IMG/VR virus record: IMGVR_UViG_3300035034_002228
Span: 17,796 to 81,795 of that record
Strand: one strand, 5' to 3'
Source of the DNA: a virus
Length of the DNA stretch: 64,000 bases
The notes under the pieces were generated by a model. The model did no database searches. It was not told the origin of the DNA and worked only from the letters and a program-made list of their open reading frames with translations. The position numbers and the translations under genes were made by a program. Shown one piece after another: positions 1-20,727 of the stretch. Every line of letters begins with the position of its first letter. Position 1 is the stretch's first letter.

Positions 1-989
1 GCAGTTCTACCAGCATTACCGACAACAAAACCGATGTATTAAACCTAGACTACATTGCCCGTTTTCTAGACCGGTTCCCGGAAACTAACACCATCATTGT
101 CAATGGCGGCGACCCATTGATGCTCAAGCCGGATTATTACTGGGACATCCTTAAGCTATTGGAAGAACGGAACATGACGGAAACCATCGTTGGTTTTACC
201 ACCAACCTCTGGGATTTCTACAAGCGCCCTGACAAATGGACCGAACTATTCCGTCATCCCCAGTTCTCTGTGTGCACCTCCTTCAACTACGGCGACAGTC
301 GACGTATCAGTAAGAATCGTGTTTTCACCGAAGCCGATTTCTTGGCCATCAGCGACTTGTTTCTTGAACGTGTGGGTTACCGGCCAGACTTTATTTCCGT
401 CATTGACGAAGACAATCGCGATACCGCCATTGACAATGTCCGATTGGCTAAACGTCTTGGGGTGGAATGCAAACTGAATTTGGCCATGGTCAGTGGTCGC
501 CAAAAAGAACCGTTCTTGATCTCCGACGTACACGAACTTTACCTTGAGATCTACGACGAGGGGCTCATGCCGTGGGAGTACAACACCAAACAGATGGTGA
601 ACGCCCTTAATAGTTACCACACCACTTGCCCAATCAGCCGTGACTGTGACACCGGTATCCGTAATATTCACCCCAATGGCGAGTACTACAGTTGCGGTTC
701 CTTTGGGGACGATCGGAAGTTCCCCATCGATTTCAATAAAGAGATGGAAAGTGACACCATCGCCACGCCCTTGTCCAAAGAGATCACCATGCGGTCCATG
801 CATGACGGCTGTTTTGGGTGTGAGTTGTTTGCTCTGTGTAACGGCTGTCGAAAAACCATCCGTGACACGCAACAAGCAGGGCTGGTTGAAAAACATTGCA
901 CCACAATGACCGCACTCAAACCAAGACTGTTGGAAGCGGCGGAGAAAGAACCATACGCGGTGGGAGGACTGAGTGATAGTATCGATTAA
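1..989 (+). CDS. Radical SAM protein with C-terminal SPASM-like domain (5' end lies outside the window)
   Basis: The frame is open from nt 3 (SSTSITDN...IIVNGGDPL, a radical SAM GGE/DP motif); the CxxxCxxC motif is presumably just upstream. The C-terminal Cys array CPISRDC...YSCG...CFGCELFALCNGC...HC is SPASM-like. Confidence 0.85.
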   Translation, partial: SSTSITDNKTDVLNLDYIARFLDRFPETNTIIVNGGDPLMLKPDYYWDILKLLEERNMTETIVGFTTNLWDFYKRPDKWTELFRHPQFSVCTSFNYGDSRRISKNRVFTEADFLAISDLFLERVGYRPDFISVIDEDNRDTAIDNVRLAKRLGVECKLNLAMVSGRQKEPFLISDVHELYLEIYDEGLMPWEYNTKQMVNALNSYHTTCPISRDCDTGIRNIHPNGEYYSCGSFGDDRKFPIDFNKEMESDTIATPLSKEITMRSMHDGCFGCELFALCNGCRKTIRDTQQAGLVEKHCTTMTALKPRLLEAAEKEPYAVGGLSDSID

Positions 990-1872
990 CCCGTTGTACC
1001 GGTGTAACTTCCGGTGCAGTAACTGTTACCTAACTGAGGAACAGCTTCGGTCACGCGCTTTGTTGGACTTAGAGCAGTTAGACCGACGCTTGGCGGACAT
1101 ACCCGAGATTGACGCGGTTGAACTTTATGGAGGCGAAGTCACTTTATTAGACGAGAGCTATGTTAACGACCTTAAAGGTGTGGTACGTCGGTATTACGAC
1201 GGTCCGATCTCCGTGACCACCAATAGTTACCAGATGCCGGAATGGATTTATCACGACGACATCGACGTCAACGTCTCTTACGATTTCAATCATCGACCAC
1301 ACCACGAACAGGTGTTCACGAATCTGTTGGTTTTCTCCAGGCCGGTGAACGTTATTGTGTTGGCCACGCCAGAAGTAATGGCCGACGATGTAGACCAACA
1401 GATCGAACTAATACGCTCTCTGGTGAATTTGAACTCGGTTGAAATCAAACCTTACAGTCCAAACCAAGCCAACGATCGCGGGAACCGTAACCAAGACTAC
1501 GTAGAGTACGTCAAACGCTGGATACGCGGTTTCCCTAATAATCGCTTGCGTAACAGCGCCTTGTTGAATGAGGTGGCTGACGGGGTCCGTAATGCCTTCT
1601 CCGACGACCACGTGTACATCACGCCCGAAGGAAAGTTCGGGGTGTTGGAATTCGACGAATTCGACCGCGAATACTTTCTCCAGTTGCCGGATTTTAAAGC
1701 CTACCAGCAATGGACCAAGAACGAAAAACACAAATTGCTATCAGAAATATGTCGGGCGTGTGAGTTTAAAGGTAGGTGTTTGACCGAACATTATCGACGG
1801 AAGGAAGGTCTGGATGGGGAATGTAGTGGGTACAAATCGCTCATCGAGTGGTGGTTGGGTCGAGCGGCTTAA
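973..1872 (+). CDS. Radical SAM protein (second), with Cys-rich C-terminal auxiliary cluster motif
   Basis: CNFRCSNC (CX3CX2C), YGGEV, TTN motif, C-terminal CRACEFKGRC..H..EC. Overlaps the previous gene, with GGAGG upstream. Confidence 0.9.
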   Translation: MIVSINPLYRCNFRCSNCYLTEEQLRSRALLDLEQLDRRLADIPEIDAVELYGGEVTLLDESYVNDLKGVVRRYYDGPISVTTNSYQMPEWIYHDDIDVNVSYDFNHRPHHEQVFTNLLVFSRPVNVIVLATPEVMADDVDQQIELIRSLVNLNSVEIKPYSPNQANDRGNRNQDYVEYVKRWIRGFPNNRLRNSALLNEVADGVRNAFSDDHVYITPEGKFGVLEFDEFDREYFLQLPDFKAYQQWTKNEKHKLLSEICRACEFKGRCLTEHYRRKEGLDGECSGYKSLIEWWLGRAA

Positions 1873-2236
1873 ACGCTTTCATCTCAACGGTGTTAAAACA
1901 GACTACTTTGGGGGACACTACAACCCATGTGTCATAGTCAGCGCGGTAAAAATGATCAATGGCGACTGTGAGGCCCTTGAATTCCCCGCCAAGAGTTATT
2001 TGGTGGGGATCTGCTACGCCGACTACATCGCGCGGTATTTCAACGTGGATTTTTACGAGGTACTTTCCCACCCAACGTTGTTGCACGACGATGAGCATTT
2101 CGTTCCATATAACGAGGCGACAGCCCCGGTTTATGAGACGCTACTCCCAATGGTGTTGTCAAACGACTTCCGCACTACGGAGTTGTACGGTGTCATCATC
2201 GGGTACTGTGAAGAAGAACTGGGACTGACTGAATGA
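1814..2236 (+). CDS. Hypothetical protein in the radical SAM cassette
   Basis: 140-aa ORF with AAGGAAGG RBS before ATG 1814; fills the gap between rSAM-2 and the oxygenase. Start uncertain. Confidence 0.65.
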   Translation: MGNVVGTNRSSSGGWVERLKRFHLNGVKTDYFGGHYNPCVIVSAVKMINGDCEALEFPAKSYLVGICYADYIARYFNVDFYEVLSHPTLLHDDEHFVPYNEATAPVYETLLPMVLSNDFRTTELYGVIIGYCEEELGLTE

Positions 2237-2244
2237 GGTGATGT

Positions 2245-2814
2245 ATGAGCAGTGAGGCAATGTGGCCAACTTTTATCGAAACCCACGATCTTAGTGATGA
2301 TTGCGACTTGGATCAGGCCGTGACTGAATGCTTAATGGTGTCCAATACACTTCAGGACAAAAACAACCTACCCTTAAAAGACTGAGGTACACCCGAACTC
2401 CACCGTATCCACGAAGAGTTAATCATGCCGTTGTTCTACCAACACTTGGAAAGGCGTTACCAATTCAAACCGGAAGGGGTGTCGGTGGCCAATTGGATCT
2501 TCGGTGGGAACGACGGCAGTGGCCTGGAACCCCACATCCATTCGGGTTCGCATTTTACGGCTGTTTTTTACCCAATGGTCGTCGGTGGTAGTATTGTCAT
2601 GGTGGACCCGCGATACAGTGCACAACGTGGATATCCTCGGGATTTCATCGACGGTCATTTTGGGAAGAAGAAGATCAACCCAACCGCCGGTCAATTGGTA
2701 ATCATGCCCAGTTTCCTTGAGCATTACGTCACCGGCTTTAAACAGGGACTGCGTTTGTCATTTGTAAACGACATCATTTTACGCACCGACGACGGTGATG
2801 TCCATTTCGATTGA
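2245..2814 (+). pseudogene. 2OG-Fe(II) oxygenase (TIGR02466-like), interrupted by in-frame TGA at 2383-2385
   Basis: GAGGTG RBS and ATG 2245 are in frame with the 2425-2814 ORF. N-terminus MWPTFI; HIH, AVFYP, DPR, PSFLEHYV and RLSFV motifs; a single TGA at codon 47. Could be a pseudogene, readthrough or a sequencing error. Confidence 0.7.
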
Positions 2815-2819
2815 CGCTT

Positions 2820-2849
2820 GGCGGACCTTAGGGTCCGTCTTTATAACGT
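2820..2849 (+). terminator. Intrinsic terminator after the rSAM/oxygenase cassette
   Basis: GGCGGACC-TTAG-GGTCCGTC followed by TTTATAACG. Confidence 0.65.
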
Positions 2850-3044
2850 CGTTCCAGACGCATTGACGTGTCTTATCTTATGACAAATTTTATTCATTGG
2901 AAGGTAAGCGACGTGAGTGGTATGTCCGTTTCTTTTAATTCTTGATGTCCTGACCTTGGCCCAACCGATTTCATTACGCACATAGTAGTAATACCAAACA
3001 CCATAATTGTCTGTGAACGTTCATTAACCAGGGAGCTTTACCCA

Positions 3045-3932
3045 ATGGCCGCAATCGATCAGGAGATTATTGGCGTCAGTCGTACCGTCTACGGGACGTA
3101 CCTTCAGACCATCAAGAATCTCGGACTTCCGTTTACCCTCATTCAAAACACCACGTTGAACGAACGCTTTGACGTCCAGTCGGGTGTTGCACCAGAGTCA
3201 CATCAAACCCCAAGCATGCGTTATTTGGCCATCGGTAACCTGGGCCACGCCACCGTCAAAGCCGACGACGGTAGCGATGAAACCGTACCGCTGGTTCACC
3301 GCGCAACTGACGCCGGTATGTACGGTCAGATCCCGTTTGTGTTGCGTGAGTTGACAAACGATCTGCCGGCGCACGAACGTAGTCGCTACGGTCTACGGGT
3401 GTTGGAATCACACAATGGTCGTCAGTACATCGCTTATTACCTGCGTCGGATCAACATGACTCAGGTTACCCCACAGCTCCAGCGAGTTGAAATCATCGAC
3501 GGTGTTTCAACCGTGGTTCCGTTTGTGCCAAGTACAGACAATCTAAACCCAGCCCGTCCAAAGATCCCCAACAGCGGTATGGTGGTGGGTTCTAACTCGT
3601 CCGAGTCCGCATCGGCGGTGGTTACCATCAGCCTTACGCCAAGTGACGTGGCTGAGATCTTGAACGCCCACCGCATCCGAACTGGATCGACTCGTTCACC
3701 GGTTATCTCTGAATTGGCGCTGGTCTCCGGGGTGGATAAAGAAGTGTCGGGTAGCAGTGGTGGTTCGGGTAACTTCACGTACCGCGAGGTTATTGCCGCG
3801 CAGATCAATGTACACATCTCCACGTACCACGCTTTGGGGTATTCAACCAACGGTGCTGAATTCACCCTTGACGTGGGTGGCGTTGAACCAACCTTGGGTG
3901 AAGACGACGTCAATGGTGCCACCATTATCTAA
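3045..3932 (+). CDS. Conserved phiKZ-like virion structural protein
   Basis: 295 aa, GGAG RBS. Motifs TLNERF, YLAIGNLGH, PFVLR and YIAYYLRRI resemble the virion gene that precedes RuvC in phiKZ-like phages. Confidence 0.65.
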   Translation: MAAIDQEIIGVSRTVYGTYLQTIKNLGLPFTLIQNTTLNERFDVQSGVAPESHQTPSMRYLAIGNLGHATVKADDGSDETVPLVHRATDAGMYGQIPFVLRELTNDLPAHERSRYGLRVLESHNGRQYIAYYLRRINMTQVTPQLQRVEIIDGVSTVVPFVPSTDNLNPARPKIPNSGMVVGSNSSESASAVVTISLTPSDVAEILNAHRIRTGSTRSPVISELALVSGVDKEVSGSSGGSGNFTYREVIAAQINVHISTYHALGYSTNGAEFTLDVGGVEPTLGEDDVNGATII

Positions 3933-7623: not shown

Positions 7624-9681
7624 ATGACTACACCGCAAAAGATTTCTGATCTGCAAATCGCCGGTCAGGTTAAGAACGACGATTACGTTGAAGTAATCCA
7701 ACGCAATGCCGAGGGCGACTACGTCAACATGCGTTTGGCGATCAATAACCTCAAAGGCAAAGACGGCAAGTCGGCGTTTCAATTGGCCAAGGACGACGGG
7801 TTTACCGGCACCTTTAACGAATGGCTTCTGTCCCTGCGTGGCCCGGAAGGCAAAAACCCGTTTGACATGGCTCAAGCCGGTGGGTTCACCGGTACTCAAG
7901 AAGAGTGGTTGGCGTCTTTGGTAGGGCCTCAGGGCGCTCCGGGTCCCCAAGGTGAAGCAGGTCCGCAAGGCCCGGAAGGTTCTGTGGGACCGACCGGCCC
8001 TGCCGGTCCGAAAGGCGAAGCCGGTGATGCGGGTCCCGTCGGTCCCAAAGGCGAGGTTGGTGACGCTGGCCCAGCGGGCCCGAAAGGCGACGTAGGTCCT
8101 GCGGGACCGGAAGGCCCTCAGGGTGAAACGGGTCCGGCTGGTCCCATCGGACCTGAAGGCCCAGAAGGCCCCCAGGGCACTCAAGGTCTCAAAGGGGACC
8201 AAGGGGAACCTGGCCCGACGGGTCCGACGGGTCCAGTTGGCCCCAAAGGGGATCGTGGTCTGGAAGGTCCAGCAGGTCCGGAAGGTCCGCAAGGCGAACA
8301 GGGCGAAATGGGTCCAGGCATTAGCATTGTCGGGACACTGACGGCTGAATCCGAACTACCCGACACCGGCACGCTGGGTGAAGGTTATTTGGTCAACGGC
8401 GAGTTCTGGGGTTGGACCGGCACTCAGTACGAAAACCTAGGACCCATTCGTGGTCCTAAGGGTGAACAGGGTGTTCAAGGACCCGCTGGACCGGAAGGGC
8501 CCGAAGGCCCGCAAGGCGACATGGGACCCGAAGGTCCGGCTGGCGCTACCGGTCCCAAGGGTGATAAGGGTGACGCTGGCACAGTCGGGCCGAAAGGCGA
8601 CGTAGGCCCTGCCGGCCCTGAGGGTCCCCAGGGTGAACAGGGTGTTCAAGGTGAGAAAGGTGACAGTGGTGACCCCATTCAAATCCTGGGTACCGTCGCC
8701 GATCAATCTCAGCTTCCCTCCACCGGTGTTTCTGCCGGCCAGGGTTACGTCATTGGCACCAATCTGTGGGTGTGGGACGGTGCGGCGTGGTTTAACGCCG
8801 GCAGCTTGAAAGGTCCTCAAGGTGAACAAGGTCCGATGGGCCCTGCCGGTGTCAAGGGTGACGACGGTGCTCCAGGTCCTCAGGGTCCTGAAGGTGCTCA
8901 GGGTCCCCAAGGTAACACCGGCCCTGCCGGTCCGACTGGTCCTAAAGGTGATACTGGCGACGCCGGTCCCGCCGGCCCTGAAGGCCCTGCCGGATCACAA
9001 GGCCCTGCTGGCTTTGATGGCGCCGATGGTCAGTCCGCGTATCAGATTGCCGTGGACAATGGTTTCACAGGCACTGAGGCCGAATGGTTGACCTCACTGG
9101 AAGGCGAAGACGGTGTCGGGTCGGCACTGTCCATCGCGAATAACGGCACGGCTGTTACCGCCGAGGCGAAATCCATCAACTTCAAGGGCGCCACGGTTTC
9201 TGAAACCAACGGTGACGTTACGGTTGAAGTGTCGGCCAGTAGCGGTGGGTCAACAGGCGGTGTAAGCCTCGTACGCAAACGCGCGGTGTTGATGCGCGGG
9301 TCCCTGGAGGCGATTGTCATTGTGGTTGGGTTTGGTTCTCAGACCGACATGGACGCCCTGACCATTGAAAAACTGAACAGCGGCAGTGTGGTACGTCTGG
9401 ACAACAAAGCCGCTGCGCTCCACTTACATTCTGTGACCATATTTTATGATGCAGGATGGAACACCGGTAGCTCGTTCAATCTTCAATTCCCGGACAACTG
9501 GGGTGATGATTTCATGGGCGACATGGTGATCCCCACGTTCCAGCAGTTCTCTCGGTTGAATCCGCCGACACTGCAACCGACGACTTACCAGAACTACGAA
9601 GTCGTTGATGGTTACGTGAATGTTGGTAAAGCCAACGTTAACTCCAGCTACGGATATCACTGGAAGTACAACTTGTCGTAA
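7624..9681 (+). CDS. Collagen-like fibre protein (685 aa)
   Basis: KISDL N-terminus, SA(F/Y)..A...GFTGT..EWL.SL modules, long Gly-X-Y runs broken by two W.WxG..N.G modules, globular C-terminus. Confidence 0.88.
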
Positions 9682-9690
9682 ACACCAGCG

Positions 9691-9730
9691 TCATTGGGGT
9701 AGTGATCTTCAATGAATGCTACCTCAATGA
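9691..9730 (+). other. Intergenic stem-loop
   Basis: TCATTGGGGTAGT...GCTACCTCAATGA, 13 bp with G-U pairs on the + strand; no U-tract on +. Confidence 0.5.
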
Positions 9731-9745
9731 AAAAAGGATTGTCAA

Positions 9746-10459
9746 ATGTCAAAACTACATTTTCAGGCCACCATTGACCTGAAGAGTGCAATCCCGGATG
9801 GTGAGGCGTGGGTAGTCCAAATTGGCTTTCGGGACGGCGAAGGGTACTTCCGTCCCAGTCAACTCCAGGCGAGCGATGTCATTGTACTGAACACGGGGGC
9901 ACTTGAGCCCGGAACGTACACCCAGTACAAGATCAACGAAGTGATCAATGTCAGCTGGACCGGTGAGATCGAGTTATCGATTCAATACCTAGACGGCAAC
10001 AACAACGACATTGCTAACCCACAACTGGATTACCTGGTTGGCGCGGTAGGTATCGTATCACGTCCCAGCGAACACTTGGGGCTTTTACCAGTCGTGTCGC
10101 CCGATGTTCAGGACATGAGCGACGCGTTCAGTATTTACACGTTGAACCACAACATCGTGAAACTGCTGGACGCACCTCGGTCTGACGGTGGGGGTGGTGG
10201 TGTTGTCCTTAAAACAGCCCAATGGTTGCCCGTTATGGCTGACGGTCGAGCCCCACTCCCAACCGAGCCTCTGGGGGACTTCGTACTGGACATGGGCATG
10301 GCGCATCTGTTGGATGGGTCGGTGGTTGAGTTGTCTGGAGTAAAACCCCAGTTCAATGCCGAAACATCCACATGGTATGCAGTGATCCCCGCAGCAGACA
10401 TTGCTGAACTCCAAGGAATGGTGGGTGCTATCACTGTGTCTTACCTAACCGGTTCTTAA
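9746..10459 (+). CDS. Hypothetical protein (fibre locus)
   Basis: 237-aa ORF with AAGGA RBS, between fibre genes. Confidence 0.75.
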   Translation: MSKLHFQATIDLKSAIPDGEAWVVQIGFRDGEGYFRPSQLQASDVIVLNTGALEPGTYTQYKINEVINVSWTGEIELSIQYLDGNNNDIANPQLDYLVGAVGIVSRPSEHLGLLPVVSPDVQDMSDAFSIYTLNHNIVKLLDAPRSDGGGGGVVLKTAQWLPVMADGRAPLPTEPLGDFVLDMGMAHLLDGSVVELSGVKPQFNAETSTWYAVIPAADIAELQGMVGAITVSYLTGS

Positions 10460-10491
10460 AACACAATCTTTGATATTTCAGGAGCAATAGC

Positions 10492-11487
10492 ATGGCTATT
10501 ATCAAGCGTAATAAATCCACGATTTACGGCCTCGTGAACGACCTCGGTCAAATCAACCAGTCCATCCTGGACGAAGCCGAAGCCCGTAGTAACGCCGACG
10601 GTGATCTGGCGGCACTGACCACCACTGAAAAGACTAACCTCGTTGCGGCTATCAATGAAGTCAAGGGTGCAGCGGATCAGGTCTCCAGTGACGCACTGAC
10701 CAAAGCCGACAACCTCGCCAGCGTAGCTGACGCAGCGGCGGCCCGTACCAACCTGGACGTGATGTCCGGTGGTGAAATCGATCAGGCGATCTCTGACGCG
10801 CAGCTGAACTTCGGTAAGAGTTACAACGTTGCCGACATCGCGTCCCGTGATGCCCTGACCGGTCTGACCAACGTTGACCGTGTCCTGGTTACCGACGACG
10901 GCGATAGCAAATGGGCCCTGTACCAGCCGGAAGCGATCGATGGCGATACCGGTGCAGTTACCAGCTGGGTCAAGCTGTCGGATCAAGACACCCTGGAAAA
11001 CGCCATCAGTGCGTCCACCATCAAGCAGTCTTACGAGTCCAACGCTGACACCAACGCGTTCACCGACGCTGAGCAGACCAAAGTTGGTCACGTCACCGTC
11101 ACCCAGGCGATTGACCTGGACGACGCGGTCCTCAAGGCCAACCTGGCACAAGACCTCGCGTCGTCCAGCGCCACCGACGCGGCACCTTCGGTCCAGTCCG
11201 TTAAGAACTACGCGGACACCGCAGCCCGTGCTGGCGGTGCCATTCCGTTCATGGAAACCGTTGTAATCTCCGGCGATGACATCACACTGACCCATCAACC
11301 ACGTGGTGGTGTTAATGGCATCATGAACTTCGCCACCGTGCGTTACACCCATACTAGCGGTGTGGCATGGGATGCACCGGTTGTTGCCACAGCTGACCCG
11401 AAAGTGTTCACGGTTAACGCCGACCGCGCTGGTCAGTGGGACACTGAGAGCGTTCGTGTTCAGTACCTGTACAGCCCGCAGGCTTAA
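10492..11487 (+). CDS. Virion/fibre-associated protein, paralogue of 19494-20078
   Basis: AGGAG RBS; GDLAALTTTEKTNLVAAINEV fibre motif; shares its N-terminus and C-terminal GIMN.ATV...ATADP...VQYLY domain with the 19494 gene. Confidence 0.8.
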   Translation: MAIIKRNKSTIYGLVNDLGQINQSILDEAEARSNADGDLAALTTTEKTNLVAAINEVKGAADQVSSDALTKADNLASVADAAAARTNLDVMSGGEIDQAISDAQLNFGKSYNVADIASRDALTGLTNVDRVLVTDDGDSKWALYQPEAIDGDTGAVTSWVKLSDQDTLENAISASTIKQSYESNADTNAFTDAEQTKVGHVTVTQAIDLDDAVLKANLAQDLASSSATDAAPSVQSVKNYADTAARAGGAIPFMETVVISGDDITLTHQPRGGVNGIMNFATVRYTHTSGVAWDAPVVATADPKVFTVNADRAGQWDTESVRVQYLYSPQA

Positions 11488-11535
11488 TGGGTACTAGCGG
11501 TATCGAGGGTACCGCTAAACTGTAGTTAAAATCTC

Positions 11536-11593
11536 CTGAAGCTAACGTGGGAAAGGCATCTAAATGGCCTCCTGCGTTAGCTTCAGGTTTATG
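11536..11593 (+). terminator. Long stem-loop (terminator or processing site)
   Basis: CCTGAAGCTAACG...CGTTAGCTTCAGG perfect 13-bp stem with extension, followed by TTTATG; a second hairpin (TAGCGGTAT/GTACCGCTA) lies just upstream. Confidence 0.55.
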
Positions 11594-11615
11594 TGTTCAT
11601 TAGTGGAGAGATACC

Positions 11616-12383
11616 ATGGCTAAGCGTATTACGGAAATGGGCCCGATTGAACTTCCACTCTCCGGAGAAGAGCTGTTGGAAGTGGTTCAGAACGGTGTCA
11701 ACAAGCGGTTCCCGATCGGGGAACTGACGGTTCAAGGTAACGACGGGCTATCGGCATTCGATGTCGCGGTCCGTGAAGGCTTTGAAGGTACTTTGGAAGA
11801 CTGGTTGGCATCATTGCGCGGCCCAGAAGGACCAGTGGGTCCACGGGGACCACAGGGCGTTGAGGGACCGAAAGGGCCCAAGGGTGACACTGGCAACGAT
11901 GGTCCGGCTGGACCCAAAGGAGACGCAGGGCCGGAAGGACCCCAAGGGGAACCAGGACCCGAAGGACCTGAGGGGCCCAAAGGTGAGAAAGGCGATACCG
12001 GTGATACTGGCCCAACCGGACCTAAGGGCGACAAAGGTGATAAGGGTGATACGGGTGACCCCGGCCCAGTTGGACCTGAGGGACCATCAGGTGGAGGTGG
12101 TGGTAGTAACTTTGTAACCATCCAAGCCACCAGCTGGAGTGCGGGACAGTTTACCTTGCCTGAAGGAGTAACGGTCGAGAAGATCTACTCGGACAGCTCC
12201 CTGCAAATCAACCATGGGCAGAACAAATACCCGAAGGGTTGGTTTGGGTTCATTCGAGAGTCGGACCCTTGGGTAGGTATCATCCCAACCAACGTTCGGA
12301 ACATTCAAATCGTCGATGCGAATACGATCATTATCACAAACGTGTCCAGCTTCGAAATCTTTGATATTTCCATTCAGTTTTAA
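11616..12383 (+). CDS. Short collagen-like protein
   Basis: KRITEM N-terminus, [20 protein letters not shown] module, about 30 Gly-X-Y triplets, globular C-terminus. Confidence 0.85.
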
Positions 12384-12399
12384 CACGAGGGACTGATTT

Positions 12400-12912
12400 A
12401 TGATCAACGCGGGGATAAAGATTGCTTCTTTTAATGGCAAGCAGTCATTCAACAGCGAAACCCAGCTTTGGGAAGGCATTGAAGTCAGTGTCAACTACCC
12501 TGGAAAGCAAACGCCGGTGGACAACCCAATACAGATCGGTGACCTGCTCATTGAACCGGGTGGGAGCATCTGGCAAGTTGAGGCGGCGACGGTTCTGGAT
12601 GATGTCGCCGGCGTATTCGAGCTGTCGCTGTCAATGCTGGAAGAAGAAACCACGGACGCGGTCTCACCGGGTCTGGGTACGGTCAACCGAGGTGGTATTG
12701 TAACTCCCAAACAAGGGTATGTGGCACCACATTGGGATTCAACCATCGTCGACGCGAACGTGTCTCGAATTGCCTCCATGATCACCATGGAAAACTACGA
12801 CAAACTGTTTGGTGGTGGTGACGGTAGCGATGCGGGGGATGGATCGACCGATACTGGGCCAGTATGGCTTGGTGTGGTGGACGGCGGTGAACTGGGCAAC
12901 TCAGGAGCATAA
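12400..12912 (+). CDS. Hypothetical protein (fibre locus)
   Basis: 170-aa ORF, GAGG RBS, ends in VVDGGEL. Confidence 0.75.
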   Translation: MINAGIKIASFNGKQSFNSETQLWEGIEVSVNYPGKQTPVDNPIQIGDLLIEPGGSIWQVEAATVLDDVAGVFELSLSMLEEETTDAVSPGLGTVNRGGIVTPKQGYVAPHWDSTIVDANVSRIASMITMENYDKLFGGGDGSDAGDGSTDTGPVWLGVVDGGELGNSGA

Positions 12913-12915
12913 CCC

Positions 12916-15900
12916 ATGTCAGGAAACGAAAGAAGGTATCGGTTCCCTCGCGGTAATACCGAACAAAACAACAGTTATACCGGGTACGATGGGGAAGTCA
13001 CCATCGATACCGAACTCAATCAACTGCGTCGTCACGACGGCGTAACCCCCGGTGGTTTTGTCATCGCCTCCGGCGGTGGCGGTGAGATTGGGGATGTCAG
13101 CGAACTGATCGACACCGGCATTCTTGTCGTTGGTACGCTGTCCACCCCCGACAATCTTCCGGAAGCGTGGGAACATTCCACCGGTGATACATACATCATA
13201 GACACCCACTACTACACCCTGATCGGCAACACCTGGGAAAACCTCGGGTCGTTCCGTGGGGAAGACGGCCTGAACGCGTACGAACTGGCCGTGACCCGTG
13301 ATGGGTATACCGGCACGTATGGTCAGTGGAAAGAAAGCCTGCGTGGACAAGACGGCATTGGCATCAACGTCCGTGGCTCGCTGCCGAATCTTGAAACACT
13401 GGATTTGGTGGAACCGGTCCGGGGTCACGCGTACGTGATCGATCGGAAGATGTACGTTTGGGACACCCAGAAATGGGCCGAGGTGGGGCAAGTTGGTCCC
13501 CCCGGGATGAGCACTTACGAGTTGGCCAAGGTCACCGGTCAAATCGAAGAGTCCACCACCCTGACGCAGTACCTCAACTCCCTCAAAGGGCAAAGTGCGT
13601 TTCAGCTGGCGCGGGAGATTGAAGAAATCCCGTCGAACTGGGGCCTTGAAGATTACCTCGAATCCCTGCAAGGCAAAAGCGCGTACGACATGGCCGTGGA
13701 AAACGGCTACGTTGGGACGATTGACGACTACCTTGCCTCGCTGGTAGGACCTGAGGGTCCCCAGGGTCCCCGTGGTCTACGCGGTGATAAGGGTGAACAA
13801 GCCAACGCCATTCAGGTGTTGGGTAAGGTGGTGTCTTATCTGGACCTTCCAACCGAGGGCGTGTCTCCAGGTGACGCGTATTTCATCCAGAAGAACCTCT
13901 GGGTCTATACAGGCTCGCGTTTTGAAGACCTGGGTGAGATTGTAGGGCCACAAGGTGAACAGGGCTTACAAGGACCCTCAGGCCCTCCTGGGGACCAAGG
14001 TCCCGAAGGGCTGAGCGCGTACGAAGTGGCCATCAACAACTACCTGTTCGACGGCGACGAAGAAGCGTGGATTGCGTCCCTGGAAGGGAAGAGCGCCTAC
14101 GAGATTGCCAAAGAGTTCGACTACGGTAATGAGATCGAAAGCGAGGAACAGTGGCTGGAGTCATTGAAAGGCAAGAACTCGTATGAGACCGCCATTGAAC
14201 TTGGCTTGGTGGCTACGGTTGAAGAGTGGAATGAGAAGATGCGTGGTCCGGAAGGGCCGATGGGTCCTCAGGGTCCCATGGGTCGCAGTCTGGAGATTTC
14301 CGGCTACGTTCAAGACCCCGATGCCCAACCACTGCCAACAGACGTCTCCCCGTACACCGCGTACGTGGTTCAAGATCACCTACACATGTTCACCGGCACC
14401 GAATGGGTCGACCTTGGACGCTTTGAAGGTCCCAAGGGGGACAAAGGCGATAAGGGTGACAAGGGCGATACCGGTGAGAAAGGCGAGGTTGGTACCGGCA
14501 TTCAGGTAAAAGGCGCCGTAGCCTCTGAATTGGCCCTACCCAACATCCAAGACTACGTCGACGGTGACTGTTTCTTCGTTGAGAAGAACCTCTACGTGAA
14601 AACCGGCGGTCTGTGGTTGAACGTTGGGGAAGTGAAAGGCGATCAAGGGGAAAAGGGCGAACAAGGTGACCAAGGTCTGACTGGCGACCGTGGACCACGT
14701 GGCACCAACGGTCGAAACGGTCGCAGTGGTCGGAACGGCCGCAACGGCTTGCATGGTTGGAACGGGCGTAATGGCCGGACTGGTCGTCAAGGTCCCATGG
14801 GCGCGCCCGGTCCGCGTGGGTTTACCGGTTCGCCGGGCGCGTCCATTAAAGTGAAAGGGTCGGTACCGGCGGTGAGCTTCTTGACCGACCAAGGGAACGA
14901 GGTCGGTGATGCGTACATCGTCGAGAACGAGTTCCATGTGTGGGATGGCACACAGTGGACCAACGTAGGATTCCTACAGGGCCCTCGCGGTGTGGACGGC
15001 CCCCGTGGTCTGCAGGGTCCCGTTGGACCGATGGGGGTGAAAGGCGACCAAGGCGTTCCTGGCCCACAAGGCATCGAAGGGGTGCAAGGCTCGGACGGTC
15101 GTCAAGGTCCCATGGGCCTGTCTATCAATGTCCTGGGTCGTGTCTCTACCTTTGCGAGTCTGGACGCCAAGTCCCGACCGTCGTTTGGCGACGCGTACAT
15201 CGTCGACGATACCGAGGGTGAGGTTTACGCGTGGGACGGCGAAGCGTGGCAGGGTCTGGGTCCGGTCCAAGGTCCCGAAGGACCTCCTGGTCCAATCCCT
15301 ACCCCACGTGGTGTAGCGGTTGACCCGGATTACCTGTTCAATCAAATCCTGAACCCGAAGAAAGGCGATTTCTACACCATCGCGGGTGAAGCCTGGATTC
15401 ATGACGGTGAGACGTTCATCAACGTCGGTCAGTGGACCGGACCCGAAGGTCCCAAGGGCGACAAAGGTGATCAAGGCGAAAAGGGTGACGCGGGGGATGA
15501 CGGCCACGGCATCATCGTTCTTGGCGAACTGGGTGATGTAAACGACCTACCCTTGACCTCCAGCCGTGGGGATTTCTACGTGGTCACCGGTGACCTGTGG
15601 GGCTGGGACGGCGCCCGTTGGGTTAACTACGGTCCTTTCCGTGGTCCCACCGGACCGGCTGGACCAAAAGGCATTGATGGCATCGACGGTGTGGATGGCA
15701 TCGACGGTGAACAAGGCCCGCAGGGTGAACGCGGTCTGCAAGGCGAAACCGCCGCCAGCATCAAGGTACTGGGCTCGAAAGCCACCGTGGGCGAACTGCC
15801 GGACGGCAGCACCAGCGAGGTCGGTGATGCGTACATCGTCGGTGACCGATTCTACGTGTGGAACAGTGCCATTTGGGAAGACGTTGGCTTCCTGCAAGGC

Positions 15901-17502
15901 CCTCGTGGCATTCAGGGCGAACAAGGTCCTCGTGGTCCCACAGGTCCGCAAGGTCGGGCTGGTGAGCAGGGACCGCAAGGTTCTACCGGCGCACAAGGCC
16001 CTGTGGGTGCGGAAGGTCCTCAGGGTGAGAAGGGCGATACCGAAGCGGCCATCTACGTCATCGGTAGCCTGGAAAGCAGCGTTGCCCTGCCCACCACGGG
16101 CAATGAACGCGGCGACGCGTACATCATCGACCAGAGCTTCTGGGTCTGGGACGGTGCTGAATGGAGCGATGTCGGTTTCATTCACGGTCCGAAAGGGGAT
16201 CGGGGGGATACCGGTCCTGCCGGTCCGCAAGGTCCGTTAGGCCCACGTGGGATTCAAGGTCCTCAGGGTGAACAAGGCCCAGAAGGTGAGAAAGGTCTCC
16301 AGGGTCCCATGGGCATTTCCATCCGAATCATCGGCAGTCAGCCGACCATCTCGGACATTCCGGACCGTCAGCACCAAGTTGGTGACGCGTACATCATCGA
16401 TGGGGTTGTGTACACCTACGATGGGTACAGCTGGATCGACATTGGCCAGTTCCAGGGTCAGCGTGGTCCTCAGGGCCCCAGTGGTCTGGACGCCTACGAA
16501 ATGGCGGTCAATAAAGGATTCACTGGCACCTTTGAAGACTGGGTGGAATCCCTGCGCGGTCCACAAGGCGATGCCGGTGCGGGACTCACGTTCCTAGGCA
16601 TCCTGGGTGACGCTGAGGAATTGCCGACCACCAACAACATGAACGGGGACATGTACCGCAAAGGTCCACACCTGTATGTTTGGGTCGACACCGCCTGGAA
16701 GAACATGGGCATCATACAAGGCCCCCGTGGTGACGAAGGTCCCGAAGGTCCTGCCGGCCCCGAGGGTCCGCAAGGGATGCGTGGCCCACAGGGTACCGCC
16801 TGGCTGTCGTTCGAACGTGATCCGGACACCCTGGACGGTTTGAAGGGCGACTACGCGATCAACACCATCACCAACGACTACTTCCTCAAGGTGGACGAGT
16901 TCCTCTGGGTGAAGCTCGGCCGGATGGGCGGCGGTACCGTGGAAGAAGCCCCGACCTCCGGTGGGCGTTACGTTCGTGCCGAAGGTGGCTGGAAGCCACT
17001 CAAGGAAGGTGTGACCGAAGCGCCAGTGAACGGCGAAGCGTACATGCGTATCGACGGGACGTGGACGCTGTACAGACCACCGATCGTTGACGTAGAAACC
17101 AGCACCCCGCATCACCGTGTGAAGGGTTCTTGGGTCCCGGTTGAGCTGACGGACGCCCCGGTGGACGATCAAACCTACTTCCGTCGTAATAAGAAGTGGG
17201 TGCCGTTCAACCGGTACACGTTGAAGAACGAAAGTGTCGATACGGTGATGGACCTGTCCATTGCCCAGACCTTCAACATCGCAGCCACTCGCGATAAGGC
17301 ATTGTCGTTTACCAACGCGCCGGGCGCGGATCGCACCATGACGGTGGTAGTGACCATCGCCGGAGACGGCGGTATCATCACATGGCCGGACAGTGTGTTC
17401 TTTAAGGACGAAGTACCGCCAACATTGGGCACCAACTACACCGTGGTGGTCATGTATTGGACGGGCTCGATCTGGATCGGGAAACTGATGGAAGCCATTT
17501 AA
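12916..17502 (+). CDS. Giant modular collagen-like fibre protein (1528 aa)
   Basis: Mtd_N-like start (RG..EQ...YTG..GEVTIDT....[11 protein letters not shown]); 13-14 GDAY...WDG..W.NVG modules; 8 SAYE.A modules; Gly-X-Y runs; 4 foldon-like repeats; fibre-type C-terminal domain. Confidence 0.9.
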
Positions 17503-17512
17503 TCCACCCATA

Positions 17513-17543
17513 ATGGGGAGGGGTGACCCCTCCCCACACTTTT
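17513..17543 (+). terminator. Probable terminator
   Basis: TGGGGAGGGG-TGA-CCCCTCCCCA then CACTTTT. Confidence 0.55.
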
Positions 17544-17556
17544 ACAGTGAACGCCT

Positions 17557-18168
17557 ATGGACACTTACATTAATTTGACAACGGGACAATACCCACTGAC
17601 CTTGGAGGAAATACGGCGAGAGCTTTTGACCGTATCCCTACCAAAAGCCCCCACCGAGGAACAGCTTCGACGGTGTGGCTATGGGTTGGTGAAACCGACC
17701 AAACGCCCCGCCGGTACCAACGTGGTGGGAACAGCCCCACGGTATCAGAACGGGCAGTTTTACCAAACTTGGGAGGTGGTGGAGAGTGCGGATTTGGGCG
17801 AGTGGCAACAAGAGCTTAAACGGTTGCTGGATACGACCTACAACACCCTGTTGACTCAGGGATGGACGTACGGTACTCACCAAGTCGACCTTGTCAACAG
17901 TGAGGAACTGAATTGGTTTTTCTTAGAGTGCTTATCGTCACAAGACGATCACTCGGACGAGCCGGTTTTGTTTTATACGCCCAATGGCGATGCGGTGGAG
18001 TTTGACTGGGAGACAGGATTGCAATTCGTCAAGGACGCGGTGCGGTATCGACGTTCGTTGAAACGCGGGTACCACCACGGACTTACGCACATTCGTGAGT
18101 GCGAGTGTGTGGCGGATTGCAAATCTGTTAAACGCAAGTTAGAAACAAAGGAAGTCTTCCAATGTTAG
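17557..18168 (+). CDS. Hypothetical tail-fibre-associated protein
   Basis: YINLTTGQYP..IR...VSLP and P....G.FYQTWEV resemble small fibre-accessory proteins. Confidence 0.65.
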   Translation: MDTYINLTTGQYPLTLEEIRRELLTVSLPKAPTEEQLRRCGYGLVKPTKRPAGTNVVGTAPRYQNGQFYQTWEVVESADLGEWQQELKRLLDTTYNTLLTQGWTYGTHQVDLVNSEELNWFFLECLSSQDDHSDEPVLFYTPNGDAVEFDWETGLQFVKDAVRYRRSLKRGYHHGLTHIRECECVADCKSVKRKLETKEVFQC

Positions 18169-19313
18169 AAACGTTACTAGGGGCCGCTGGCAACAGCACA
18201 CCCGGCGTCTCATTCACGGTCACCCCACGGGCAAGTTCGTTCAACGCCGGCAACGCCGTGGAGTTTACCATTCAACCAACGGACCCCATTCCAGGGTTTG
18301 TCTACAGTTGGTCGGTGGGTGGTTCAATCGACCCCGAACTCATCGACGGGCCGACCTCGGGCACGTTCAGTTTTAGTGACACCGAATCGGTCACGGTCTC
18401 GGTCACCACGCTGATTGACGAGTTTAAGGACACGGGGGAAACGCTGATCCTGAACATTCACCCGTCTGAAACCAGCAGTTCGGTGGTGGCGCAATCCATT
18501 CCCGTTAACATCATTTATTCCAGTCACCCCACTGGGAGTCACCTTCAAGTGGCTACCGGTACACGCCAATGGGTCGTCCCAACGGACGTCACTAAGATCA
18601 GTGCGGTGTGTATCGGTGGTGGTCAAGGGGCGAACTATACCCGGCGTGGACCAGGTGGTGACGGCGGTGATTTACGCTGGCGGAACGACATCCCGGTGGT
18701 GCCAGGGGAAACCCTGACGCTGGAAGTCGGCGCCGGTGGTTTAAACAGTGCCGATTTGGCCACCCGCCAAGGCGGTACGACCCTCATCAAACGGGGCGAC
18801 AGTGTACTGCTCGCCGCTGGTGGGGGCGGCACTACCGACAGTGTTGATTTCACCGACACCATTGGTGGTGGTAATGGAGGTCAGGGTGCCGACGGTGGCG
18901 AGAACGGTCCTGGCGGCGGTGGCGGTGCCGGCGGATACTCCGGCGACGGTGGTGATGGCGGTAACGCGGTCATTGACGCTCTGCCTGGGGAAGGCGGTGC
19001 TGGCGGTGGCGGTGCCTACTACTTTACCGAAAGCAACAACAGCCATCACGCTACGCCAGGTGGGGGTGTTGGTCTTTATGGTCAAGGCAGTAGTGGTACG
19101 GCCGGTACCCGTAACGACACCATGACTGCCGGTGGTGGCGGTGGCTCCGGTGGCGACGACGGGACCTGGATCGTGACGGGTCTCTACGGGGCCGGGGCAC
19201 GCGGTAACTCCTCCAACAACTACTTCGGGGCCGTAAACGGAGCCAACGGGGCGGTTCGTTTAATCTGGGGACCCGCCCGAGAATTCCCGAACAACAACAC
19301 AGCCGACCTCTGA
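18162..19313 (+). CDS. Glycine-rich domain virion protein with N-terminal Ig-like region
   Basis: WVVPTDVTKISAVCIGGG start, many GGGG tracts and GANGAVRLIWG end are typical of phage glycine-rich domains. Confidence 0.8.
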   Translation: MLETLLGAAGNSTPGVSFTVTPRASSFNAGNAVEFTIQPTDPIPGFVYSWSVGGSIDPELIDGPTSGTFSFSDTESVTVSVTTLIDEFKDTGETLILNIHPSETSSSVVAQSIPVNIIYSSHPTGSHLQVATGTRQWVVPTDVTKISAVCIGGGQGANYTRRGPGGDGGDLRWRNDIPVVPGETLTLEVGAGGLNSADLATRQGGTTLIKRGDSVLLAAGGGGTTDSVDFTDTIGGGNGGQGADGGENGPGGGGGAGGYSGDGGDGGNAVIDALPGEGGAGGGGAYYFTESNNSHHATPGGGVGLYGQGSSGTAGTRNDTMTAGGGGGSGGDDGTWIVTGLYGAGARGNSSNNYFGAVNGANGAVRLIWGPAREFPNNNTADL

Positions 19314-19454
19314 TGCCAATATTATAGATTCAAGCACCTCTCTACTCAGCACACTGCATAAGTTCACCACGGGGGTGTCCCTGTGGATGATCCCTGTTTT
19401 TGGTCCAACAGTCCCGTTGACCACACGTAGGTTACTGACGGAGATTGGGAGGGT

Positions 19455-19462
19455 GTAATATA
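19455..19462 (-). promoter_or_regulatory. phiKZ-type early promoter core TATATTAC, antisense to the fibre operon
   Basis: Exact match to the phiKZ early consensus on the - strand in an intergenic gap, with AT-rich upstream DNA. Confidence 0.45.
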
Positions 19463-19493
19463 AACAATTTTTGACGCATTGGAGTTCAGACCC

Positions 19494-20078
19494 ATGGCTA
19501 CGGTTAAACGGGATAAAGCCAGTATATTCGGACTGAAGATTCAACTGGGTGAGATCGAAACTCGGGTGCAGGAACTGTTTGACAGTGGTCTGCTCACGGT
19601 GGAAGACCGGGACCTGTTGAACAAGTTGACGACTTCCGAAGCGGTTAATTTGGACAACGCGGTGACCACCGAGCGCTTGGCCGCAAACATTTCCGACCTT
19701 CAGTCCGATGCCCTGGCGGCGAACGTCACCGCCATCCGAGAGTACGTTTTGGGCGCCCTGCAGATGGGTGGTCCCAGTGTCATGGTGGAAACCCGACCCA
19801 TTTACAACGGTCGGGTGACCTTGACGTACAAACCCCACTCCGGGGTCCATGGCATCATGAATTACAGTACGGTCCAGTTCGATCTGGATGGTCAGTTGCA
19901 TCAGTTAAAGCTGACCGCCACGGCCGATCCGTACCAGTTCCTCGTTGATCCAAAAGGGTTGGACATCGAGGGGTACAACGTTCAGGTTCAGTACCTGTAC
20001 CACCACGACGCTCGGGATCTCAATGCCTTGATTGGCGAGATGATTCTCGACGGGTTGGTGTTAATCGAACCTGAATAA
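19494..20078 (+). CDS. Virion/fibre-associated protein, shorter paralogue of 10492-11487
   Basis: GGAG RBS before ATG 19494; MATVKRDKASIFGL vs MAIIKRNKSTIYGL; shared C-terminal domain. Confidence 0.8.
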   Translation: MATVKRDKASIFGLKIQLGEIETRVQELFDSGLLTVEDRDLLNKLTTSEAVNLDNAVTTERLAANISDLQSDALAANVTAIREYVLGALQMGGPSVMVETRPIYNGRVTLTYKPHSGVHGIMNYSTVQFDLDGQLHQLKLTATADPYQFLVDPKGLDIEGYNVQVQYLYHHDARDLNALIGEMILDGLVLIEPE

Positions 20079-20175
20079 CTACCAATATTATGTGAGTTAA
20101 CACTCACACTGAACATGGCCGAGCCTTGAGATTTTCTCTTCGGTCATTCACAACATGCAATTGGAGTTTTACCCC

Positions 20176-20727
20176 ATGCTGATTAATACTTCGAAGTCTG
20201 CCGAAAAGAACTTGATCGACCTGATCAACGCTGACAACGGCACTGCACTGACTTCCGCTGAAATCTCCATCGGCGTTCCTGCCGTATGGGACGAGCTGAC
20301 CGACACTGGCAGCGACACTGGTAACGACCGTAACACCAAAGTAACTGTTTCTGCTGTCGCTAACAGCGGTTACAAGGACTCTGTTGACATCCGTTACTAC
20401 CGTCTGGACCTGGACACTCTGCGTGGCGGTGTTTCCCTGGAGCACACCAAGTCTGAGGCGTCAACTGTTCAGTCCGTTATCGATGCGATCGCCACTCAGG
20501 TTGATCTGATCGAAACTGAACTGGCCCTGTTCGACGAAACCGGTACAGAGCTCAGCTCGCTGGTGGCTCTGAGCGAGCCCAAGGTATACACTGTTCGCGC
20601 CAAAGCGGACAGCGTGTGCTACATCGGTCAGATGGACGTTACCATCAACCCGATCCCGGTACCTGAAGTTCCGGTCGGTGATGAAGTGACCACCACTGAC
20701 ATGAGTGGTTTCGAATACCCGGCGTAA
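20176..20727 (+). CDS. Virion protein of the YxRxDL paralogue family
   Basis: GGAG RBS before ATG 20176; LIDLIN, RNT, YYRLDL, SVCYIG; C-terminal VTTTDMSGFEYP. Confidence 0.8.
   Translation: MLINTSKSAEKNLIDLINADNGTALTSAEISIGVPAVWDELTDTGSDTGNDRNTKVTVSAVANSGYKDSVDIRYYRLDLDTLRGGVSLEHTKSEASTVQSVIDAIATQVDLIETELALFDETGTELSSLVALSEPKVYTVRAKADSVCYIGQMDVTINPIPVPEVPVGDEVTTTDMSGFEYPA

Follow-up and report, generated by a model that had tools for sequence, protein, structure and literature searches.

Maturation by radical S-adenosylmethionine (SAM) enzymes that carry a SPASM domain has so far been known for secreted peptides, for a few enzymes and, since 2026, for one defence effector. Among the SPASM enzymes, QhpD/QhpC, PqqE, MftC, the sacti- and ranthipeptide synthases and DynA/DarE crosslink Cys-containing or C-terminal cores, some of them with separate or fused helper proteins, and anSME oxidises Cys or Ser in a protein; YydG, whose substrate is a ribosomal peptide, has a single auxiliary cluster instead of two. 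The defence effector, HxsA of the HXS antiphage system, bears His-x-Ser repeats and is accompanied by the radical SAM enzymes HxsB and HxsC and the small protein HxsD, as outlined in the report on that system (Li et al., Nat Commun 2026, PMC13128918). Here we analysed a 64,000-nucleotide stretch of viral DNA (the window; bases 17796-81795 of the 81,795-bp IMG/VR virus record IMGVR_UViG_3300035034_002228, whose estimated completeness is 27%) together with the 17.8 kb of the same contig that lie 5′ of it. A preliminary description of the window had singled out four tightly packed genes at its start, encoding two radical SAM enzymes (rSAM-1 and rSAM-2), an accessory protein (ACC) and a 2-oxoglutarate (2OG)-Fe(II) oxygenase, as a viral tailoring cassette. 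We find that these genes make up only the 3′ third of a larger cassette with five radical SAM paralogues and a 186-amino-acid protein whose C-terminus reads (Cys-His-x-x)x3-R-x-R-R. We propose, at a probability of about 0.5, that the cassette is a protein-maturation system akin to those of peptides that the ribosome makes and that are modified after translation (RiPPs), with this Cys-His tail as its substrate. If so, a conserved multi-enzyme version of such maturation, borne beside attachment genes by predatory bacteria and by hundreds of phage contigs, would mean that viruses devote ~10 kb of anaerobic-type radical chemistry to finishing one protein of their own.

The cassette occupies positions 10149-20609 of the contig (10.5 kb), starts 7.6 kb 5′ of the window and is an unbroken chain of open reading frames (ORFs) on the + strand, most of which overlap or abut. 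With a hairpin on each side of this same-strand chain, it is one unit. Its features are as follows, with window positions unless the contig is named:

Contig 10059-10088: terminator-like hairpin with a T-run, between a fibre-like gene and the first radical SAM gene.
Contig 10149, 15649, 16650, 17666 and 18768 (ORF starts), + strand: five CX3CX2C proteins, the radical SAM paralogues.
Contig 11269-11829, + strand: Cys-His-tailed protein of 186 amino acids, ~6 kb 5′ of the window, abutting the radical SAM gene rSAM-A.
Contig 11826-14954 (window -5969 to -2841), + strand: three tandem Cys-free paralogues of ~350 amino acids, 25-32% identical to one another.
1-989, + strand: rSAM-1 (3′ 329 codons in the window), a radical SAM protein with a full SPASM-type Cys pattern in its C-terminal domain.
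973-1872, + strand: rSAM-2, with a GTG start and a 17-nt overlap with rSAM-1.
1814-2236, + strand: ACC, 140 amino acids, with a 59-nt overlap with rSAM-2; matches phrog_20737.
2245-2385, + strand: N-terminal fragment of the oxygenase, 46 codons, ending at an in-frame TGA; same frame as 2425-2814.
2425-2814, + strand: C-terminal ORF of the oxygenase, 129 amino acids, with the whole PF13759 domain and all conserved residues.
2820-2839, + strand: closing hairpin with a GC-rich 8-bp stem and a 4-nt loop, followed by UUUAUAACG.

A protein of 230 amino acids completes the cassette. Conserved C-terminal Cys number seven to eight (the full SPASM pattern) in three of the five radical SAM paralogues and four in the other two, so that a unit built around two such enzymes, as first described, gives way to a far larger one. 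The tight packing of the four genes did hold, the first three overlapping as stated, except that the frame of the oxygenase is broken by a TGA. The terminator said to close them is present as a hairpin (-18.3 kcal/mol, z = -3.2; 1 of 200 shuffles folds equally well), with UUUAUAACG 3′ of it instead of a U-tract, and was not called by a consensus terminator scan. The ~350-amino-acid proteins of different lineages form one family (hhalign 99%) with 1-3 copies per cassette and very few invariant residues; for these and for the 230-amino-acid protein, PDB, Pfam and Atlas searches gave nothing usable. In current annotation the genes of the cassette are labelled MoaA, Fe-S oxidoreductase or hypothetical protein.

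A Cys-rich precursor had been predicted upstream of the window, and the Cys-His-tailed protein, which co-occurs with rSAM-1, is the candidate found there. It belongs to a family of 108 proteins with no Pfam domain and no name, mutually 18-28% identical, with one close relative at 76%. In an alignment of 31 such proteins the sole invariant residues are the three C-terminal Cys-His pairs, which R-x-R-R follows; the tail consensus, (Cys-His-x-Ser/Asn)x3-Arg-x-Arg-Arg, is almost invariant and the body of the protein is variable. We scanned viral contigs, which gave 72 loci, and one genome per species with an rSAM-1 profile, which gave 47 loci, and searched all of these in six frames for the tail motif near a stop codon. 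The motif is present in 48/72 viral and 27/47 genome loci when all loci are counted; among loci with at least 9 kb upstream and at least 3 kb downstream of rSAM-1, a tail ORF lies no more than 10 kb from rSAM-1 in 39/42 viral and 21/26 genome loci. The motif did not occur in the 64-kb window, nor in shuffled loci totalling 1.9 Mb. Some tails have two, five or six repeats, and comparison by eye of repeat number with radical SAM complement showed no link. One ORF for a tail protein, open at the 5′ end of a Dysosmobacter-titled contig (L105, 3-362), has a long Cys-His repeat array, and another locus (L068, 6564-7871) has six repeats on a 435-amino-acid protein without the R-x-R-R end. Longer fused forms of the tail protein were not found, which is weak evidence, and tblastn of the tail protein of this phage and of a marine one against isolate phages gave no match.

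The proposed arrangement is like HXS in several respects. Both have at least two adjacent radical SAM enzymes and a small partner binding one of them (HxsC-HxsD there, rSAM-2 and ACC here, where the two occur as fusions); in both a full-length protein with short His-containing repeats is the target, established there and proposed here; and the product stays a protein in HXS, as we propose for the cassette, going by the outline of HXS in its report (PMC13128918). Moreover, the C-H-x-S units of most tail homologues contain H-x-S. Unlike HXS, the cassette has at least five radical SAM enzymes and invariant Cys in the repeats, its tail protein has no visible signal peptide and no peptidoglycan-binding domain in any hit, and its carriers are phages and predatory bacteria, not defence islands. 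Membership in HXS itself was rejected: on this contig the HxsC model scored 28.3 bits against a cut-off of 267.9 and HxsB and HxsD gave no match, the HxsA model not being searched. The HxsC model also matches in 14/14 control genomes, and none of the three models searched matches beyond a generic radical SAM core.

The closest solved relatives of the two radical SAM enzymes act on proteins or peptides. The true start of rSAM-1 lies at contig 17744 (window -51), judging from homologues that start M-[ED]-L-I-I-K-P-T, and its CX3CX2C motif is 5′ of the window proper, the last base of the motif being window base 2. At full length it scores 42.5 bits on Pfam PF04055, above the cut-off of 29.5; it matches phrog_1802 at 7e-46 and belongs to a family of 1467 proteins at E <= 1e-5, most of them 53-60% identical. 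The SPASM domain is defined by seven Cys, CX9-15GX4C ... CX2CX5CX3C ... C, and binds two auxiliary clusters. The SPASM-like tail with eight Cys noted in the preliminary description is borne out in rSAM-1, in which C-x15-C with G-x4-C is followed by CX2CX5CX2C and a final C, each of the eight Cys being kept in 58-59 of 59 homologues. In a profile search of solved structures the best relative was anSME (TIGR03942; PDB 4K36-4K39), at E = 1e-9 over the core and the SPASM region, with SuiB next. The last tail repeat has the spacing C-x-x-x-R, which we take to match the sulfatase motif and treat as a lead only. Unlike anSME, rSAM-1 scores 31.7 bits against the TIGR03942 cut-off of 349.45, the cassette maps contain no sulfatase gene, and the tail motif is without the Pro/Ala of the sulfatase signature.

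rSAM-2 passes PF04055 narrowly, at 29.8 bits against 29.5. The CX3CX2C motif and the CX2CX5C tail reported for it are real, the motif and four C-terminal Cys (CX2CX5C...C) being present in 52/52 homologues; yet with four conserved C-terminal Cys, not seven, and no match to the SPASM model TIGR04085, rSAM-2 is, from its sequence, not a full SPASM enzyme. Its best solved relative is the core of the peptide epimerase YydG (TIGR04078; PDB 8AI1-8AI6), at 1.7e-9 over residues 5-132. On the YydG model, however, whose cut-off is 300 bits, rSAM-2 reaches 15; the match covers the core only, and there is no YydF-like peptide. Weak NCBIfam matches of rSAM-1 and rSAM-2 include DynA (7e-8) and DarE (6e-5). 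The cassette differs from the SPASM maturases in scores far below their cut-offs, in the lack of a detectable PqqD-like recognition element, and in the number of radical SAM paralogues per cassette and the viral setting, both of which are unusual.

ACC, whose N-terminus is conserved in the closest relative of this phage (locus L005), has no Pfam or PDB relative that we could find, an Atlas search likewise giving nothing usable; a weak match (E = 0.18) is to an asparaginyl hydroxylase, in the C-terminal part of the latter. When 1.84 billion representatives were searched with an ACC profile, 291 proteins were returned, mostly of ~140 amino acids. Among the 150 of these matches that were listed, seven are fusions with rSAM-2, of 410-463 amino acids, ordered rSAM-2::ACC in six and ACC::rSAM-2 in one; by BLASTP, one fusion of each order has 43% identity to full-length rSAM-2. 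Since natural fusions occur in both orders, ACC is, as far as gene architecture can tell, a dedicated partner of rSAM-2.

These findings suggest how the cassette might work. The four genes at the start of the window would form the downstream tailoring block of the conserved ~11-gene cassette. In rSAM-A, rSAM-B and rSAM-1, all with the full SPASM-type Cys pattern, a 5′-deoxyadenosyl radical from SAM would abstract a hydrogen from a Cys, His or Ser of the tail, leading to crosslinks or to anSME-type oxidation of Cys or Ser. A complex of ACC with rSAM-2, the latter with one auxiliary cluster, may perform another reaction on the same polypeptide, and the 2OG oxygenase, whose gene is interrupted in this phage, an optional O2-dependent hydroxylation. 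Candidate chemistries thus comprise thioether or other crosslinks, anSME-type oxidation, epimerisation and hydroxylation. The product probably stays a protein, because the cassette has no leader peptidase or exporter, and would serve together with the fibre or attachment genes nearby. Maturation of the tail in this way is consistent with the best profile matches of rSAM-1 and rSAM-2, which are protein or peptide modifiers (anSME, YydG), and with the presence of fibre-like or collagen-like genes adjoining the cassette in phages and of S74 fibre-like genes near it in Bdellovibrionota. It also offers two concrete items for experiment, the 16-residue tail as substrate and rSAM-2 with ACC as enzyme pair, and culturable carriers exist (RSL2, RSF1, the FLC phages, S13 and pPa_SNUABM_DT01).

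Several observations weigh against this proposal. The TIGR04085 SPASM model scores 20.6 bits on rSAM-1, below its cut-off of 27. No PqqD-like recognition element (PF05402) was found in the five radical SAM proteins or the other cassette proteins, nor, at E <= 1, in 35 homologues of ACC. The assignment of the tail protein as substrate is guilt by association: its gene adjoins rSAM-A and not the block of rSAM-1, rSAM-2, ACC and oxygenase, which is tied to the tail by neighbourhood. The homologue of the tail protein in RSL2 is annotated as a hypothetical protein, not a virion protein, in 11/11 isolate records that carry it; the invariant Cys3His3 tail could bind a metal or an Fe-S cluster without being modified; and sugar-related genes lie beside some versions of the cassette (a weak GT8 match, others judged by eye). 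In short, the system for modifying proteins or peptides that was first suggested for these genes has the right nearest solved relatives and lacks a recognition element, protease or exporter that we could detect.

A metal-binding tail would fit an alternative in which the enzymes make or alter a small molecule, glycan, cofactor or nucleic-acid base and the tail protein serves as a metal or Fe-S carrier, or as a carrier protein for the product, with its three Cys and three His as a plausible metal site. Small molecules, too, are among the substrates of SPASM and twitch enzymes. The PDB list of rSAM-2 contains, further down, the cores of viperin and MoaA (1e-3 to 2e-2); a B12-binding radical SAM protein is found in many versions of the cassette; a weak GT8-like match lies 3′ of ACC in 6 genome loci; and the RSL2 version has a dihydrofolate reductase gene embedded between two radical SAM genes (L004, 10822-11358, ORF073), which the cassette of this contig does not. 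Marine phages rich in radical SAM genes also carry Fe-S assembly genes (PMC5332604). Against this, orthology to the usual radical SAM enzymes of phages was not found, as the preliminary description had anticipated: of the NCBIfam equivalogs searched with rSAM-1 and rSAM-2, all scored far below their cut-offs, with no match for QueE, 15.9 bits against 131 for NrdG2 and 22 against 284 for MoaA, and no viperin orthology was found for the radical SAM proteins of the cassette. The best profile matches of the enzymes are protein or peptide modifiers, the cassette has no conserved partner of the nucleotide-metabolism or DNA-kinase type, and it sits in structural or host-recognition regions, not in replication modules. 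In addition, a variable body with an invariant C-terminal core is more like a precursor than a chaperone. DNA or small-molecule chemistry is therefore, in our assessment, less likely, and we regard the carrier explanation as unlikely. DNA hypermodification was also considered as the lead and set aside, there being no conserved partners of the thymidine-hypermodification type and the enzymes not being near those families.

The same precursor-like organisation, in which a short invariant core at the C-terminus follows a long, leader-like body of variable sequence beside radical SAM/SPASM enzymes, would suit a classical RiPP pathway that cleaves off the C-terminal 16 residues and sets them free as a peptide such as a metallophore or toxin. 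Heavily modified RiPPs are typically tailored by several enzymes, including radical SAM enzymes, B12-dependent radical SAM enzymes and 2OG oxygenases. However, the mapped versions of the cassette contain no conserved protease, transporter or exporter, or immunity gene, no recognition element was detected, and RiPPs usually conserve the leader and vary the core. We therefore think a released peptide improbable.

The cassette is conserved in phages as a gene set with a recurring order. The Ralstonia phage RSL2 and the Pseudomonas phage pPa_SNUABM_DT01 have one-to-one orthologues of its genes in the same order, flanked on one side by a virion or fibre gene and on the other by lysis genes. Counted by tblastn at 1e-4, its genes are found as follows among the 72 viral loci:

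rSAM-1: 70/72.
rSAM-2: 64/72.
rSAM-A: 57/72.
Oxygenase: 51/72.
rSAM-B: 50/72.
ACC: 49/72.
230-amino-acid protein: 37/72.

Clustering of all ORFs gives the order [cupin/JmjC], rSAM-A, tail protein, 230-amino-acid protein, ~350-amino-acid protein, [2OG oxygenase], rSAM-B, [B12-dependent radical SAM or 2OG-like], rSAM-1, rSAM-2, ACC and oxygenase, with fibre-like or collagen-like ORFs 3′ of the oxygenase; the optional members in brackets were named from Pfam. The block from rSAM-1 to the oxygenase is the most constant part and recurs in most of the 72 loci. Radical SAM cassettes have been placed in the host recognition cluster of pelagimyophages (PMC7029224), a T4-like genome with 12 radical SAM genes has been reported (PMC5332604), and in the portions of the genome papers that bear on them the cassette genes are merely listed (PMC11898562, PMC5468394). 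We found no paper describing the cassette in a literature search that did not extend to supplementary tables such as that of the phiRP31 virion proteome.

That the cassette stands beside fibre genes, as first described, is confirmed by fibre-like genes flanking it here, in other phages and in predatory bacteria. The gene just upstream of it in this contig is fibre-like and matches phrog_2163 and several tail-fibre families. This setting raises the alternative that the enzymes modify fibre, collagen-like or other particle proteins, with the Cys-His-tailed protein as a helper (scaffold, adaptor or cluster donor). Consistent with such a role, the cassette is directly 3′ of fibre-like genes here, in RSL2 and in DT01; in other lineages tail-fibre-like and collagen-like ORFs lie 3′ of it; many versions have extra 2OG oxygenases of the prolyl-hydroxylase type (PF13640); the window itself has collagen-like ORFs at 7624-17502; and the substrate of anSME, to which rSAM-1 is closest among solved structures, is a folded protein of full length. 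Yet the flanking fibre genes vary by lineage, whereas the Cys-His tail is the constant partner, the fibre proteins inspected share no conserved Cys-rich motif, and in three inspected Bdellovibrionota loci the distance from the cassette to the fibre-like gene ranges from a few hundred bases to ~4 kb, with housekeeping genes in between in one case. Modification of particle proteins thus seems to us quite unlikely, and maturation of the tail remains the reading we prefer. The collagen-labelled ORFs of the window are long + strand frames (685 and 1528 amino acids) a few kb 3′ of the cassette, and a link between them and 2OG oxygenases is conceivable; collagen-like ORFs also lie 3′ of the cassette in L018, L035 and L039.

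Outside viruses, the kit is found mainly in predatory bacteria. Bdellovibrionota titles are borne by 35 of the 47 genome loci, on contigs that include ones of 1.3, 2.4 and 2.8 Mb; the assignment was taken from record titles, with lineage checked for one family. Several of the other 12 loci share T4-like gene families with viral loci and look like phage contigs binned into metagenome-assembled genomes. The Bdellovibrionota loci carry the same kit, usually without the oxygenase, and the kit is chromosomal in these bacteria, housekeeping neighbours being seen in the three loci inspected:

L081: NrdR, serine hydroxymethyltransferase, a beta-ketoacyl synthase (FabF-like) and acyl carrier protein.
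L123: serine dehydratase.
L090: a helicase-exonuclease.

In 21/47 genome loci there is a protein of 350-430 amino acids with a Peptidase_S74 fibre-chaperone domain (for example L081, 18211-19876, and L123, 13825-15671), which in Bdellovibrionota has, by eye, a hydrophobic, pilin-like N-terminus. A conserved neighbour of ~200 amino acids with no Pfam match, likewise in 21/47 genome loci, pairs with the S74 gene in Bdellovibrionota. In Bdellovibrio, S74-ended fibres are described as prey-recognition proteins (PMC10769870). Carriage is sparse, an even sample of Bdellovibrionota having rSAM-1 at E <= 1e-40 in 11 of 301 genomes, four of them already known.

We compared viral and bacterial rSAM-1 in a FastTree phylogeny of 98 rows (viral sequences of at least 300 amino acids, genome sequences that align over 280 residues or more at 40% identity or higher, and an outgroup of eight rSAM-A sequences; shorter rows were dropped). 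Label changes along the tree numbered 8 for viral rows, against 33 in shuffles, and 6 for Bdellovibrionota, against 25, which indicates strong clustering. The Bdellovibrionota rows are nearer the root; because the root rests on a long paralogue branch, we draw no direction of transfer. A bolder and less likely possibility is that a portable kit of 4-9 radical SAM enzymes, common to predatory Bdellovibrionota and to phages from several unrelated lineages, builds an undescribed covalent structure on the invariant (Cys-His-x-Ser)x3 tail, the matured protein working in attachment to, or breaching of, Gram-negative envelopes. That protein would then be an offensive counterpart of the defensive HXS effector and, in virus particles, represent a prosthetic group of a new, enzyme-made class.

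The oxygenase gene differs from the rest of the block in being interrupted. It is a single frame, 2245-2814, with a TGA at 2383-2385, and a strong GAGGTG precedes its ATG at 2245. The gene called in the preliminary description, 2425-2814, does match a 2OG oxygenase model, passing PF13759 (2OG-FeII_Oxy_5) at 32.1 bits against 27; it is the C-terminal two thirds of the interrupted gene, because full-length homologues in pPa_SNUABM_DT01 and RSL2 align across the TGA. All of the conserved residues, namely His, His, Asp, His and Arg, are encoded 3′ of the TGA. In the closest relative (L005/L006) a TGG stands where this phage has TGA; the oxygenase copy of that relative shows decay of its own, in the form of an early stop plus an internal deletion, and the phage retains a second oxygenase between rSAM-1 and rSAM-2. 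Contigs from public lake and salt-lake metagenome runs, of low depth (2-4), end at base 2384, before the third base of the TGA, and this base is therefore unverified. A scan of the 64-kb window found no tRNA gene that could supply a suppressor for the TGA. Among solved structures the closest to the oxygenase are the uncharacterised 3bvc and 2rg4, followed by prolyl 4-hydroxylase at 4e-3. The gene looks dispensable, because most mapped bacterial versions of the cassette are without it.

The phage that carries this cassette is phiKZ-like. The protein encoded at 3045-3932 is a DUF7208 protein (357 bits) that, among isolates, is matched best, at 58% identity, by PhiPA3 and other Pseudomonas phages of the phiKZ type. 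The phage genome is of jumbo size, since a copy of rSAM-1 with 97% identity sits on a 226-kb contig. A search of isolate phages for DNA near-identical to this stretch returned none. Pieces of window 1-3000 are present almost letter for letter, at depth 2-4, in contigs from two salt-lake metagenome runs of 2017 that belong to two studies, of which the best-matching may represent the sample of origin, and lake-water runs contain smaller shares of it.

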